Shown here one piece after another: positions 22,580 through 41,612 of a DNA stretch of 64,000 bases. The position numbers and the translations under genes are program-made. How positions within the stretch are numbered: the first letter of the stretch is position 1; every line of letters starts with the position of its first letter. The notes beneath the pieces were generated by a model that did no database searches, was not told the origin of the DNA, and saw only the letters and a list, made by a program, of their open reading frames with translations. Origin of the DNA: Nitrosopumilus sp. (GTDB taxonomy: Archaea > Thermoproteota > Nitrososphaeria > Nitrososphaerales > Nitrosopumilaceae); assembly GCA_965203315.1 (NCBI GenBank), contig OZ241857.1, positions 640,001 to 704,000 on the forward strand, in the 5' to 3' direction.

Positions 22580-22924
22580 TAAACAGATGGTAATAGAGAC
22601 ACAATCTGTTTTGCACTGGAAATGAAGGTGTGGGGGCAAGAGATATTGGAACATGTAGTGTGTAAACATGGACACCGAATGCACAAACTAGATGAGAAAA
22701 AGGTACGATACATCATTCGAGAAAAACGTAAAGGCACCAAAGCGACTATTTCAAAAATATTTTACAACCAATATGTAAAAAATCTTAATTACAAAAACAC
22801 ATGTGCGATTTTTATTCGATGAAATAACACATGATATCGAAAAACAATGTCGTTATGAAATTTTAACACTCAACTCGCTGATTAAAAACACCAAAAACAA
22901 CTTCATCCCACGTTAAGTTAAAAG

Positions 22925-25412: not shown

Positions 25413-25778
25413 ATTACATTGTAATTATAAATCCGTAATCACTTGCTAGTACAAGCAACAATCTCACGCATATGTTCATGGATGCGTCTGCCTTGTCACA
25501 TGTCAGCAACCTTCAAACAGTCATTATCCAACATGAATCGCCTGGCTCGTTCAGATGTGAAAGTTTGTGCTCTTGTCTGAGTCAAAAATAGATACCGATA
25601 GTTCTTTTTAGTGGTTGTCCATACTCTACGATATGAATAACAAGATGTTTTTAGATTCCTCCTATCCACAATCGAGAGATCATTAAAGCACATAAGGGGC
25701 ATGATTCCGAATCAGAATATGTCAAATAGCAAGATTCAAATGGGAGAAAAACTAGCCCCCCATCGGATGATACGGATT

Positions 25779-25990
25779 ACTCAACTCTCAAACTCAACTC
25801 TCAAACTCAACTCTCAAACTCAACTCTCAAACTCAACTCTCAAACTCAACTCTCAAACTCAACTCTCAAACTCAACTCTCAAACTCAACTCTCAAACTCA
25901 ACTCTCAAACTCAACTCTCAAACTCAACTCTCAAACTCAACTCTCAAACTCAACTCTCAAACTCAACTCTCAAACTCAACTCTCAAACTC
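25779..25990. repeat. VNTR, 13-bp unit ACTCAACTCTCAA x~16
   Basis: Perfect tandem array ending about 70 bp upstream of mod. Confidence 0.97.
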
Positions 25991-26058
25991 TTAGAGCAAA
26001 CCTCCGGTTGGCGGAGGATTATTCGACAGGTGGTGGTAAAATTAGAGGTGAACTCTAA

Positions 26059-32861: not shown

Positions 32862-33059
32862 GTCAGATAATGATAGAGTTTGTTTATCATATCAAGTGTA
32901 AGAAAAGTCTAGCAATCAAGTTAAATTACTTGACTAACAATGGCTCTACATGGCAGAGACGTTTATTGCAACTTTGATAACCAAAGGGCGAAGAACAGGA
33001 AGAGAGCATGCAGTAAAACTAAAAGCTGTAAGATATGCTATCCATGTGAATAGCTTATA

Positions 33060-33233
33060 AAGATTTACTCTGATTCACGACTATTGTGCATAGCATACGC
33101 TAGGGATGTGTTCCCATGTAAAGGACTGCGAACATATATCCATTCGAGTGGTTAACTCACTATCATTCTTCGTCCATTCGTCAAAATCTGTACATTTAGG
33201 TCGCCGAGTGATATCTCAAATATCTTCCGTACG
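33060..33233 (-). ncRNA. Putative bridge/seekRNA of IS110 element 1
   Basis: Blocks conserved with 39978-40160; target-like CGACCTA and donor-like ATGGATA next to short hairpins; ends approximate. Confidence 0.6.
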
Positions 33234-34370
33234 TTAATGATTTCGACTACAATGTGTGACATAATCATCCCTATCTATAAGCATATGGTACATCAATCGT
33301 AGTAGTTTGGAGGCAGTTGCAACAGTTGCTTTGCTTACCGCGCGTCTCTTTTTAATTCTGTTATGAAATTTTGTAATGTAACTATGGGGCTCACATTTTA
33401 TGTGTACATGAACTGCTTCGGTCAATGCCCATCTAAGCATTTTATCACCTTTCCTCGTTATATGTCCATGATTTTGTTTACCATCTGAATTACGAACAGA
33501 TGGTACTATTCCTGCATACGAACATATCTTACGAACAGTTGGGAATCTCTTGACATCTCCAATACTAGATATTACAACAAGTGCAACAAAGTTTCCAACT
33601 CCGGGAATCGTCTTTAACAACTGTGCATCTTGTGATCTCTTTACCTCCTCACGCATTTTAATATCCAATTGTCTAATCATTTCTTCATGGCAAGTTATCA
33701 TATCTAGATAGTTGTCTATTCTATAATCCTCAAGTTTCTTCAATTCCTCTCTAAATGACTTGCTAAAACTTGAACCAGGTATTTTAATCCCATATTGCAG
33801 TAATATCCCATGTATGAGATTCTTGTATTTTGTTCTACTCTTTACAATTACATCCCTATGTCGAACCAACTGTTTTAATTTAACAGTGTATTCACTAGGA
33901 ACAAAACAAGGCGAGATATAATTTCCTCTTAAAAGATCTGCCAGTGTCCATGCATCCACCTTGTCTGTCTTTTTCTTTGATTCGGCAATAGCCTTTGTTT
34001 GATATGGATTCGATAGTACTACATCAAATCCCAATTCATCTGTCAAGTATCTATACAGCCAATACCATACTGACGATGACTCCATCACACAACGTGTATT
34101 GAGTGGTGTAAATTGTGCAAAGAATTTTTTGAGACTGTCATGATCTGTAGCAACACGCTCATTGAGTATACGCTTGCCATCCTGATCCATTGCTGCAATT
34201 TGCAGAAACCTCTTGTGTGCATCTATTCCGATATAGATCATCTTGTTTTTCTTTTTTAGATGGGTAATCTGTTCGTTTGCATTTTCTCTTTTAGATCGCT
34301 TTACAGGTGATCGCTTGGATCGACTCACATACCTTCTATCATCTGAATGTACTCTGATCGGCTTCTTCAC
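33234..34370 (-). CDS. IS110-family transposase/recombinase
   Basis: YIGIDAHK, ESSS, KTDKVDA, TIPGVG, YAGIVP. Confidence 0.95.
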   Translation of the reverse strand: MKKPIRVHSDDRRYVSRSKRSPVKRSKRENANEQITHLKKKNKMIYIGIDAHKRFLQIAAMDQDGKRILNERVATDHDSLKKFFAQFTPLNTRCVMESSSVWYWLYRYLTDELGFDVVLSNPYQTKAIAESKKKTDKVDAWTLADLLRGNYISPCFVPSEYTVKLKQLVRHRDVIVKSRTKYKNLIHGILLQYGIKIPGSSFSKSFREELKKLEDYRIDNYLDMITCHEEMIRQLDIKMREEVKRSQDAQLLKTIPGVGNFVALVVISSIGDVKRFPTVRKICSYAGIVPSVRNSDGKQNHGHITRKGDKMLRWALTEAVHVHIKCEPHSYITKFHNRIKKRRAVSKATVATASKLLRLMYHMLIDRDDYVTHCSRNH

Positions 34371-34779
34371 ATATGGTTAGATCGTGGTACTTTTCCAGAC
34401 ACCGTCCTGATAGCGACTGGTTTCAGAATGCACTTGCCTACCCCATGGTAAAGATATCACACAAGGAGGAGGTGCTCAATGGTATCGCAAGAGAGATAAC
34501 AGATCCCAAACTAGTACAGTCAATATCAAATGCCAAGTATCCAAACGAAGAGCGTGCAAAAGAACCACGGGTTGTGATCGAGGTCAAGGTACAGGATTTG
34601 TCCGCATCAGACACAACATAGAGATCTTGGATCATGATACGTATTGCAGGTATAGACACGCAACTCGTGGACAAAAGTCTCAATACTCGTCATATATTCT
34701 TAGGATTTGTCCACGATACCCATGACAAGACCATACTAGTTTGAGAACTTTTATTACAGTTGAGGTTCAGAGTCCGAAT

Positions 34780-38680: not shown

Positions 38681-38849
38681 CTAGTATATTGATATGTACG
38701 TCAAAGTTATACGACACATTGCTAAAATATTACGATCAATATTGTTATGCAAATTACTTGGACACATCAATATACGATGATATCTGCTGAACTTTGATAT
38801 TTCACAAGAATCCCACACAAATTGGCCTTTATAAGGAACTTAACCGTAT

Positions 38850-39977
38850 GTGAAGGTGCATTCAACAAAGATAGATGGTGATAAGCATGCTGGTCGATCC
38901 AAAGAATCGTCTACAAAGCCCAAGACAGATGGAAACACACACATTATACGACTACCCAAGAGAATCAAGATGATCTATGTAGGGATAGATGCTCACAAAA
39001 AGTTTCTCCAGATAGCAGCAGTAGATGAAAAAGGCAAATTGCTACTCAATGAGCGTGTAATTAATGAACATAGGTATGTTAAAGAATTCTTTGCTCAATT
39101 TCCTAGGGATAAAACAAAATGTGTGGTAGAGTCATCATCAGTATGGCAAGGGTTGTTCAGATACATTAGAGATGATCTGGGGTTTGATATTATACTGTCT
39201 AACCCATATCAAACCAAAGCTATTGCTTCATCAAAGAAAAAGACAGACAAAGCAGACGCCAAAATACTAGCAGACCTACTCAGAGGAGATTACGTAACAG
39301 AATGTTATGTGGCTGATCTGTACACTATGGAATCAAGAGAATTAGTTAGATATAGAAACAGTCTCGTACAACATAAAACAGATTTTAAGAATCTAATTCA
39401 TGCAATAACACTACAAAAAGGAATCAAGATAATAGGTACACCATTTACTCGAGGATATACAAAACAATTAGAAACAATTGGAGACAGACGTATACTAGGA
39501 TATCTAAATCTAATTAATTCAATTAACGATGAAATTACTAGGACTAATTTTGAGATAAAGAGAAGAGTAGAAGAATCTAAATCTGCTCAATTACTGAAAA
39601 CTATTCCTGGCATTGGAGACTATATTGCACTTACAATATCTTCAGAGATTGGCGACATATCTAGATTTAACGACGCAGACAAACTATGCATGTATGCCGG
39701 AATAGTTCCTGCAGTATATAACTCGGGAGAAAAAAAAATAAAAGGAAGAATAACAAAACGAGGAAGCGGTATAATGAGATGGGTTCTAGTTGAGGCCATA
39801 CGAGTACATGTTGTTCATGCTAAAGATAGTCATATTACAAAATTTTACAACAAGCTCGCAAAAAAGAAAGGAAAGAAAAAAGCAGCAGTTGCAGCAGCTG
39901 CAAAGCTACTCAGAATTGCGTATTACATGCTCAAAAAGGAGGAAAAATTTGATATACATTATGGTCAGAATCGTTAA
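38850..39977 (+). CDS. IS110-family transposase/recombinase
   Basis: YVGIDAHK, KTDKADA, TIPGIG, YAGIVP. Confidence 0.95.
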   Translation: MKVHSTKIDGDKHAGRSKESSTKPKTDGNTHIIRLPKRIKMIYVGIDAHKKFLQIAAVDEKGKLLLNERVINEHRYVKEFFAQFPRDKTKCVVESSSVWQGLFRYIRDDLGFDIILSNPYQTKAIASSKKKTDKADAKILADLLRGDYVTECYVADLYTMESRELVRYRNSLVQHKTDFKNLIHAITLQKGIKIIGTPFTRGYTKQLETIGDRRILGYLNLINSINDEITRTNFEIKRRVEESKSAQLLKTIPGIGDYIALTISSEIGDISRFNDADKLCMYAGIVPAVYNSGEKKIKGRITKRGSGIMRWVLVEAIRVHVVHAKDSHITKFYNKLAKKKGKKKAAVAAAAKLLRIAYYMLKKEEKFDIHYGQNR

Positions 39978-40160
39978 AGTGCGTGCTACCGGTTGGGAGA
40001 AAATCATCCCGTGAACTTAATTGCATAGATTCTGATAAAAGGACGAAGAATGGTGGTGGGACATTGCGAACCCGGATGGATAATTATCCGAAATCCTTTG
40101 ATTGATAGGAACACATTCCTAGCGTAAGCTATGCACCACAATCATAAGATCTCTAAAACC
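39978..40160 (+). ncRNA. Putative bridge/seekRNA of IS110 element 2
   Basis: ACCGGTT and GAACTTA match both halves of its own target; ATGGATAA matches the circle junction; ends approximate. Confidence 0.7.
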
Positions 40161-40247
40161 TTTATAAATACTTCACATGGATAACCGGTTACAGCAAGAC
40201 CAACACAAAATATAAATATGACGCAATCAATAAAAATATGAGAAAAA

Positions 40248-41612
40248 TTGCTAGTTGAGAAAGCAAAAGGCATTTCAGAGTTTTTACAATCTTTTGAAGA
40301 GTCTGAACCAAACTTGGATGGTGAAAAAACGTTCAGAGAATTTGTTGCGAATCACATAAGAGAGGCTTCCAAGCATGCCGACTCGATAACTACTCTTCCA
40401 TCACAGATGCAAAATGAATATCTACAAGCTATGAGTGATTCGGTCTATTTTCGAGGAGAGCCTGACTGGCATCCACTTTTAAATTTGATCGAGCAGATAA
40501 TCAACGACTCTAAATACCATCCAGAATTGATCAATAGTGATATGACAAATCTTGCATCAGACATACTTGAAAATGGAATGCGTCGGAATGTTATCAGTTA
40601 CTCCTTAAAAGAACGAGTATGGGATATTATTCTAAAGATAGTTGAGATAGGAGACATGTACAATGAACCAGAACATGCCACATCTATGGCAGCTGAGTCT
40701 TTTAAACAATCAGTAAAAAATATCGGTGGAAAGTCATACCATGTGTTGTACATGTATTTGGTTTGGTGCAACGATAATAATGAACCAAATAACAGATTCA
40801 AAGATGTCAAACAAATCTTTGAAAGGTACCTAACAAATACCAAAAAATATACAATATCTAGGCATGCAGTATTTGGGTATTTTTTATCTAGATCGTTATA
40901 CATAAACAGACAGTGGACACTAGATGTGGTGATAAAGAAGATAGAATCAAGTTCATTATATTTCAAGATATCTTTTTGGCATTGTTATCTGTTTAATGAA
41001 AAAGAGAGAGAGTTGTTCATTACAATGAGATCATGGTACCGTGAATTTCTCACTAATCGTGAGATCATACATGTCATACATGACAATAGACTGTACAGGA
41101 AAACTATTGAACATGTTACAATAGCCTTTCTGTATGATGTAAAAGGTTTTGATGAAATATTGACAGAGTTTATCAATGATGCTGACGACAAGTCGTTAGA
41201 ATGCTGTTTCAACATTGCGTTTATCGCTTCAACAGACAAAGAGAATAGCATCAGAGTTAAACCTAAAATACATTTATTGTGGAAAGATAAGAGATTTGTA
41301 AACTCGTCCAACTTTGAAATCTGGTTCAAGGAGAGCATATTTGACAAAGATAACATTGATCTATTGTTGTATTATATTCAAAACCGAACTAGAGAGTTTC
41401 CAGACAGTGAATTCCCCATTGATCGACTTGCAGAATACATAGACGATTGTCCATTAAAGGTAGCACAATGTATAAAGATGCTTGTAGGCAGACATGTAGG
41501 TCTAACACACAAGACTATACAACCACTACTAGACAAACTATGCAAGAACAATAATCCAGAGATCATCAACATGTGTAGAGAGATTGACAAAAAGATCAAA
41601 ACTACAACTTGA
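40248..41612 (+). CDS. Hypothetical alpha-helical protein, possibly 5'-truncated
   Basis: 454-aa ORF starting with TTG right after the IS66 end. Confidence 0.55.
   Translation: MLVEKAKGISEFLQSFEESEPNLDGEKTFREFVANHIREASKHADSITTLPSQMQNEYLQAMSDSVYFRGEPDWHPLLNLIEQIINDSKYHPELINSDMTNLASDILENGMRRNVISYSLKERVWDIILKIVEIGDMYNEPEHATSMAAESFKQSVKNIGGKSYHVLYMYLVWCNDNNEPNNRFKDVKQIFERYLTNTKKYTISRHAVFGYFLSRSLYINRQWTLDVVIKKIESSSLYFKISFWHCYLFNEKERELFITMRSWYREFLTNREIIHVIHDNRLYRKTIEHVTIAFLYDVKGFDEILTEFINDADDKSLECCFNIAFIASTDKENSIRVKPKIHLLWKDKRFVNSSNFEIWFKESIFDKDNIDLLLYYIQNRTREFPDSEFPIDRLAEYIDDCPLKVAQCIKMLVGRHVGLTHKTIQPLLDKLCKNNNPEIINMCREIDKKIKTTT

Follow-up and report, generated by a model that had tools for sequence, protein, structure and literature searches.

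An archaeal IS1111-type element of the IS110 family with a probable 3′ guide RNA and a TA core

INTRODUCTION

Elements of the IS1111 type, within the IS110 family, carry a non-coding region downstream of the gene that encodes the transposase, and within this region the segment matching the top strand of the target lies 5′ of the segment matching the bottom strand (PMC11187229). For 93% of IS1111 elements, whose subterminal inverted repeats are 7 to 17 bp long, a bridge RNA has been predicted within the right end (PMC11208160), and the transposases are recognized by a length of 330 to 350 amino acids and a G(L)-P----S/T-G motif (PMC11187229). Characterized members of the group include ISEc11, ISPa11, and ISKpn4 (Siddiquee et al. 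2024, PMC11187229; Durrant et al. 2024, PMC11208160). The element described here resembles them in its DEDD transposase of ~335 amino acids, and it resembles the IS1111-group seekRNA systems in having subterminal repeats, a long non-coding region that follows the gene, and strand matches that come in the same order and overlap at the core. Its stem-loop 1 measures 73 nt and its whole conserved RNA ~130 to 170 nt; the sizes reported for IS1111 RNAs are 70 to 100 nt (short) and 145 to 170 nt (long). Unlike the characterized IS1111-group elements, this one resides in an archaeon. Its donor loop is a simple internal loop with the same form as the target loop, whereas multi-loop donor binding is noted for many IS1111 orthologues (PMC11208160).

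In archaea, 662 IS110 recombinases have already been catalogued (bioRxiv 10.1101/2024.06.21.599552), the seekRNA authors state that bacterial and archaeal IS1111 elements use such RNAs (PMC11187229), and a 2026 preprint reports large-scale clustering of the non-coding regions beside bacterial and archaeal IS110 recombinases (10.64898/2026.10.21.760802). A search of the literature on archaeal IS110/IS1111 bridge RNAs and seekRNAs, with supplementary tables that perhaps list such elements lying outside its scope, found no detailed description of their guides. Here, we analyze a 1.34-kb element in an archaeal chromosome. Positions refer to the window, which is the whole 64,000-nucleotide stretch of DNA that was analyzed. 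From its sequence, the segment from 38843 to 40183 is very probably an IS1111-type IS110-family element with an RNA-guided recombinase, a 3′ seekRNA or bridge RNA, and a TA core.

RESULTS

The element has defined ends and a TA dinucleotide at both junctions

The coordinates of the element and its parts are collected in Table 1. The host is an archaeon, as the sequence-only reading had supposed: within the respective Rfam clans, the archaeal models give the highest scores for the SSU and LSU rRNAs of the genome. At the left junction the sequence is GGAACT-TA-ACCGTATGTG, with ACCGTATGTGAAGG directly after the TA, and at the right junction it is CACATGGA-TA-ACCGGT. TA is the dinucleotide common to both. 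The target GGAACT-TA-ACCGGT with its TA core, which had been reconstructed by the sequence-only reading, is borne out at both junctions. Six sister copies (family A, described below) part from each other exactly at TA-AC-CATATGTG on the left and at CACATGGA-TA on the right (in full, TA/AC-CATATGTGAAG and TTCACATGGA-TA/, with a slash at the point of divergence), and the ends of the present element are those of family A. Homology to multi-copy sisters, whose ends are set by the points of divergence among their copies, confirms both ends.

Table 1 Features of the element and of its predicted 3′ RNA (window coordinates)
Feature	Coordinates	Strand	Size	Remarks
IS1111-type element, IS110 family (very probable)	38843-40183		1.34 kb	In an archaeal chromosome
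Left target arm	38835-38840	+		GGAACT
Left-junction copy of TA core	38841-38842	+		From sequence; TA-AC-CATATGTG junction also in sister elements
Left end and 5′ non-coding region	38843-38969	+	127 nt	
Subterminal inverted repeat	38848-38855 facing 40171-40178			ATGTGAAG facing CTTCACAT
Transposase/recombinase gene	38970-39977	+	335 aa	
Stem-loop 1, with putative target-binding loop	39964-40036	+		MFE fold, RNAalifold, pair counts
P1	39964-39972 with 40028-40036			5′ half within the gene's final codons
P2	39979-39983 with 40022-40026			GTGCG with TGCAT; closes target loop
Target loop, 5′ side	39984-39993	+		TGCTACCGGT
P3	39994-40011			Inner hairpin of stem-loop 1
Target loop, 3′ side	40012-40021	+		TGAACTTAAT; GAACT (left flank), TA (core), AT
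Stem-loop 2, with putative donor-binding loop	40041-40089	+		
P4	40041-40045 with 40085-40089			GGACG with TATCC; closes donor loop
Donor loop, 5′ side	40046-40056	+		AAGAATGGTGG; holds ATGGT at 40050-40054
P5	40057-40074			Inner hairpin of stem-loop 2
Donor loop, 3′ side	40075-40084	+		GATGGATAAT; ATGGA (right end), then TA
Two small hairpins	40108-40131	+		GGAACACATTCC and TAGCGTAAGCTA; kept in first alignment A1 and in MFE fold
TATA-box-like A/T block	40155-40170	+		TTTATAAAT; 8-nt block given as 40161-40169
Right end with TA core	40171-40183	+		CTTCACATGGA; TA at 40182-40183
Right target arm	from 40184	+		ACCGGT

The subterminal inverted repeat spans 8 bp, within the length range given for IS1111, and lies 5 and 3 nt inside the core. 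The longer non-coding region is downstream of the gene (204 to 206 nt on the 3′ side versus 125 to 127 nt on the 5′ side), by a margin smaller than in typical bacterial IS1111 members. At gathering thresholds, no Rfam family was matched anywhere in the window, and a search of the element at E values up to 10 returned nothing relevant.

A search of 20 other genomes of the genus recovered neither of the flanks of this copy, so the reconstructed target could not be compared with an uninterrupted site. Recent activity of this copy is unsupported, since the element occurs once in its genome, no second copy of the target GAACT-TA-ACCGG was found in that genome, and the 20 genomes yielded no empty site. 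A search of sequencing runs for the locus returned no RNA run. Contigs from four sequencing runs contained neither a joint across the element nor a circle junction at the locus and were uninformative. Elsewhere in the window, and unrelated to the element, positions 25727 to 26038 hold a tandem array with a period of 13 nt and ~24 mostly perfect units.

The gene product is an IS110-family transposase

The ORF lister placed the start of the gene at GTG 38850; homology begins at ATG 38970, and relatives align from residue 1 or 2 of that product. The protein matches Pfam families PF01548 (DEDD_Tnp_IS110; E = 4.4e-22), for the N-terminal DEDD/RuvC-like domain, and PF02371 (Transposase_20; E = 1e-23), for the C-terminal domain, and its score against NCBIfam NF033542, "IS110 family RNA-guided transposase," is 236.4 bits (cutoff, 140). 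Similarity to the IS621 transposase (8wt6) is distant and confined to two short stretches (E = 3e-11). GID, the E of VES/IEA, KTDxxDA, and the SG of VYNSGEK/RYESGSS are retained in the alignment, and we take the aligned D, E, D, and D positions and the serine of SG to be catalytic. The length of 335 amino acids and the sequence AGIVPAVYNSG fit the IS1111 criterion, a placement made by these two features rather than by phylogeny. A run of nine A residues (39730-39738) lies in the gene directly after the SG motif (SGEKKIKGR). Such runs are prone to slippage; the frame here is intact.

The nearest public protein relatives are fragments in two Nitrosopumilus metagenome-assembled genomes, with 63 to 65% identity. 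A scan of public genomes with the transposase alone returned mostly distant bacterial loci (25 to 32% identity) together with two short Nitrosopumilus fragments.

Sister elements share a covarying 3′ RNA fold

Twelve full-length copies, in five sequence families, are present in the genome. Family A comprises six copies and family B three, and the remaining three families are single copies, the present element among them; the 11 others have 51 to 62% protein identity to it. Many more relatives occur in related genomes. We aligned 22 sister 3′ regions from 13 genomes. From this alignment RNAalifold predicts five helices unaided, and the conserved 3′ RNA is predicted to consist of two stem-loops, each with an internal loop of ~10+10 nt (Table 1). 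Across the 22 sequences, 97.6% of pair cells are paired, compared with 30.9 to 44.1% when the 3′ partners are slid by 1 to 3 columns. Both sides change in 15 of the 23 pairs, and none of 500 shuffles reached the observed pair values. When 29 distinct sequences were aligned with a covariance model, 17 of the 23 pairs were compensatory, in an alignment that is fitted to the model. Three G-U pairs that are nearly invariant (21/22, 22/22, and 20/22 sequences) fit only the (+) strand, which is that of the transposase gene.

The MFE fold of 39960 to 40135 recovers stem-loop 1 exactly. Its stability is no better than that of shuffled sequences (z = -0.36), so the fold is supported by covariation and not by the folding energy of this copy, in which one P4 pair is C-A. 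In alignment A2, the register of P3 was inconsistent, and for this reason just 2 P3 pairs were counted. A first MAFFT alignment (A1), in which the guide region was misaligned, was rejected. The two small hairpins at 40108 to 40131 may be the tail of a longer form of the RNA.

The sequence-only reading had described two hairpins, one with GGGA and TCCC arms and a second downstream of it, and these are present at 39995-39998 with 40007-40010 and at 40057-40074. Its extent for the guide-bearing region, 39978 to 40183, needs revision at both sides: the fold begins at ~39964, inside the end of the gene, and the guide part ends at ~40089. The last 50 nt hold the TATA-like box and the inverted repeat and contain no guides.

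A covariance model of the homologous 3′ regions, a check that had been proposed along with those coordinates, was built from the 22-sequence alignment and supported the proposal. Fifteen matches were obtained in the genome. Of these, 12 immediately follow the 12 full-length transposase genes, and the other 3 (G000 C5:139555-139701, C1:936488-936638, and C1:89954-90114) are remnants with no intact transposase gene within 1.5 kb. The remnant at C1:89954-90114 carries the same left-arm guide, GAACTTAAT, as the present element and a different 5′ side. In 60 sources the model found 32 places, including sequences outside model building. Among 150 other genomes sampled from the host class, 21 had matches, in 5 of 12 families, and two genomes had at least 20 copies. 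The model found nothing in 19 loci fetched with the transposase from public bacterial and archaeal genomes (mostly bacterial, 25 to 32% identity) and nothing in 11 loci with more distant archaeal IS110 genes.

One of the family A copies lies within the window, on the minus strand at 33039 to 34377, and has its own 3′ RNA (model match, 33112-33262) with guides AAGATAT and GACCTAA. Its right flank reads TA-GC-ATATCTTAC, so its guide match lies two bases away from where it falls in the other copies. At four loci of another genome (L092 to L095 of G177), insertions are nested, with one IS family inside the left end of another. The 5′ guide of the inserted element, TTTTCACAT, matches ATGTGAA of the host element, and from this match one bridge-RNA element would be aimed at the end of a sister.

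Sides of the first loop follow the flanks of each element

The sequence-only reading had proposed that the 3′ region holds guides matching the element's own target, and had located ACCGGTT at 39988-39994 and GAACTTA at 40013-40019. Recomputation found both motifs at these positions. ACCGGT(T) corresponds to the right flank, (A)ACCGGT, read as its reverse complement, and GAACTTA is part of a longer match, the 8-mer GAACTTAA. Complementarity to the top strand is found 5′ of complementarity to the bottom strand, with an overlap at the core. Because ACCGGT is palindromic, the strand of its match is ambiguous in this copy alone. When a 22-nt target is searched on both strands, 2.9 chance 7-mer matches are expected per shuffled 1.34-kb element, and 12% of shuffles contain two opposite-strand matches within 40 nt (P ~0.12); one such chance match lies at 39704, inside the transposase gene. 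The motif matches of this copy alone are not beyond chance, and they become significant only through the related elements.

We compared loop 1 sides with flanks in 47 usable copies, using our own segmentation to extract the guides, counting distinct own pairs, and excluding the core on the right side. Rows left out of the counts were L070, which was mis-segmented; L086, which coincides with a G000 copy; L106, L073_2469, and L107_3062, whose anchors were false and fell within coding sequence; L073_1406 and L107_1984, which yielded no segmentation; and L103, L077, L078, L084, and L080, which lacked the anchor motif. An exact run of at least 6 nt between the right flank and the reverse-complemented 5′ side was found in 21 of 40 own pairs and in 23 of 1,428 non-self pairs. 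On the left, a match of at least 4 nt outward from the TA was found in 17 of 31 own pairs and in 1 of 854 non-self pairs. In all five families of the genome, both sides of loop 1 differ and each matches its own flanks. The present copy has 5′ side ACCGGT(T) and 3′ side GAACTTAA for the target GAACT-TA-ACCGGT, family A has AAGATAT(T) and GACCTAA for GACC-TA-ATATCTT, and family B has GGTTCT and AAGTTAA for AAGT-TA-AAAGAACC. This natural variation extends over five sister families in one genome and ~20 families overall. The first-loop sides change together with the flanks across sister elements, in agreement with the proposal that the guides match their own target.

These data bear on the possibility that the motifs are chance matches in a 3′ non-coding region without guide function. 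The shuffle statistics of this copy, the match at 39704, and the unremarkable folding z-score would all fit such a reading, but it leaves unexplained both the excess of own over non-self flank matches and the covariation of the helices around the loop positions, and we regard it as exceedingly improbable.

The right-arm guide has no single position. We looked for a fixed position relative to P3 and found none: in runs of at least 6 nt, the offset was -1 in 11 cases, -3 in 6, -4 in 6, -2 in 3, and another value in 2. A rigid RNP does not obviously explain an offset that differs among families by up to 3 to 4 nt. On the other side of the loop, in 11 of 15 families, the two bases after the TA are identical to those with which the left end begins, a pattern similar to the handshake guides of IS621.

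The 15-nt target of family B (TTAAGT-TA-AAAGAAC) has 22 unoccupied occurrences in the genome, which identifies the family B targets as a dispersed genomic repeat. One occurrence lies near window position 22913, and the genome repeat families D2, D4, and D7 may be related to this repeat. Many bacterial IS1111/IS110 elements target REP-like repeats.

The unoccupied sites are pertinent to a further alternative, in which a guide RNA is made but its loop is rewritten from the flank after insertion, for instance by conversion, and so records the site. A sequence correlation by itself gives no direction. However, in each of the multi-copy families, A with six copies and B with three, one guide pair is shared by copies at unrelated places that have the target motif in common, so the guide more likely chooses the site than copies it; the 22 vacant family B targets also speak against recording, and reprogramming in bacterial relatives shows that the guide sets the site (PMC11187229). 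We consider a recording loop very unlikely.

The second loop corresponds to the element ends

In the second loop, the sequence-only reading had taken ATGGATAA at 40076-40083 as a match to the circle junction. Its position after the hairpin at 40057-40074 and the ATGGA-TA portion hold. The eighth base is probably incidental, since this position varies in relatives while the left end is constant. A second donor arm, absent from the sequence-only reading, is the ATGGT of positions 40050-40054. It is opposite the left end, which in this copy is ACCGT, and one of the pairs between them is G-U. The 3′ sides of both loops have the same layout, namely one base, a 5-nt arm, TA, and two bases.

In 17 of 18 families, the ATAGA variant included, the donor 3′ arm is identical to the final 5 nt of the right end; in one more element, which automatic segmentation had missed, the arm and the right end are both ATAGG. 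The donor 5′ arm ATGGT sits two bases before P5 and is the reverse complement of the left end ACCAT. Across families, it is the exact reverse complement of the left end in 8 of 15 and agrees at 4 or more of 5 positions in all 15. Matching changes in arm and left end are seen in two families (ATAG with ACTAT and ATGAT with ATCAT), and four sister families of the genome have an A-C mismatch (ATGAT against ACCAT or AACAT). The two bases after the TA in the donor loop, compared by eye with the first bases of the right flank, showed no correspondence. Because the ends vary little, the evidence for the donor loop is weaker than that for the target loop.

Could the conserved segments work as DNA, that is, as transposase-recognized sites or hairpins without any RNA guide? 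The right-end-like ATGGATA could be a site for protein binding that is repeated inside the element, and transcription of the 3′ RNA is a prediction here. Yet the near-invariant G-U pairs would be C-A on the opposite strand and meaningless in duplex DNA, the variable loop sides follow the flanks and not a fixed protein site, and the family is experimentally RNA-guided in bacteria (PMC11187229, PMC11208160). We judge a DNA-only role unlikely.

A guide RNA might instead be located in the 5′ non-coding region, as in the IS621-like IS110 subgroup, with the 3′ structure having some other role. The left non-coding region is 127 nt and so not very short, and long non-coding regions are found at the two ends of some elements in ISfinder (PMC11187229). 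Against this, 38843 to 38969 contains no 7-mer match to the target, and both target arms and both donor arms are found within the 3′ structure. We give a 5′ guide very little credence and retain the 3′ RNA as the candidate guide.

A TATA-like block lies at a fixed distance from the right tip

All 25 distinct right ends that were compared, even those rich in G+C, have an 8-nt A/T block (TTTATAAA-like) that stops 14 nt short of the tip. In archaea, the TATA box is centered ~26 to 27 nt upstream of the transcription start. At this usual spacing, a start would fall ~8 nt past the element tip, and we predict that it would be in the flank when the element is integrated and just inside the left end when it is circular. 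The block may be an archaeal promoter that acts outward or at the circle junction; in the present copy it points at a downstream ORF (40248-41612). In contrast to the IS1111 group, the promoter-like element at the right end resembles an archaeal TATA box rather than a -35 box, and it could be the archaeal counterpart of the bacterial junction promoter, from which the transposase mRNA and the long RNA are expected to be co-transcribed (PMC11187229).

DISCUSSION

By sequence-level criteria, the element belongs to the IS1111-type seekRNA/bridge RNA systems. Everything expected of such a system at this level was found: the transposase, the repeats, the 3′ location, the fold, and both loops. The protein family, the element ends, the covarying fold, and the correspondence of guides with flanks and with element ends were observed across many sisters. 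The concept of these systems is unchanged, and the conceptual surprise is modest.

By analogy with IS621 and ISEc11, we infer that the RNA is made, bound by the protein, and able to direct recombination. The RNA would come from the strand of the transposase gene, starting in the last codons of the gene, and would fold into two stem-loops, with loop 1 binding the target and loop 2 the donor. The 5′ side of loop 1 would pair with the right target arm on the top strand, and its 3′ side with the bottom strand of the left arm and the TA core. Loop 2 would act likewise on the excised circle, where the two ends are joined, with the 5′ arm ATGGT facing the left end and the 3′ arm ATGGA-TA facing the right end and the core. 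A tetramer of the DEDD/serine recombinase holding this RNA would exchange strands at the TA, and the circle would be inserted in one orientation.

The core of IS621 is CT, in contrast to the TA found here. The bridge RNA of IS621 (PDB 8wt6) is like the predicted RNA in having two internal loops, target then donor, each pairing with both strands around the core; it differs in lying in the left end and in the reversed order of its strand matches (PMC11187229). The closest named insertion sequence that we found is ISHvo9 of Haloferax volcanii pHV4, an archaeal IS110-family element whose transposase is 34.8% identical over 98% of the query. It has a 3′ non-coding region of ~230 nt, as here, and different ends, and the covariance model found nothing in it (best E, 0.82).

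A broader proposal is that the sister elements form a clade of bridge recombinases adapted to archaea, with a fixed loop geometry (one base, 5-nt arm, TA, two bases) and a TATA box 14 nt from the tip, in which transcription across the circle junction drives both the transposase and the RNA. We put this forward tentatively, as a possibility with the odds somewhat against it. If true, the TATA-containing end would correspond in archaea to the junction promoter of bacteria, and the clade would be the first natural bridge system for TBP/TFB-type transcription; if the TATA-like element is a promoter, it would show how elements of this kind are linked to transcription in archaea.

With a single protein, bridge/seekRNA recombinases provide a programmable means of inserting DNA, and their published characterization has so far been bacterial. 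The clade is compact, with a 335-amino-acid protein and an RNA of ~130 nt, uses a TA core, and is archaeal, with its closest relatives in Nitrosopumilus genomes. Its five naturally reprogrammed sister systems in one genome offer a ready comparison of which loop positions are free to change.
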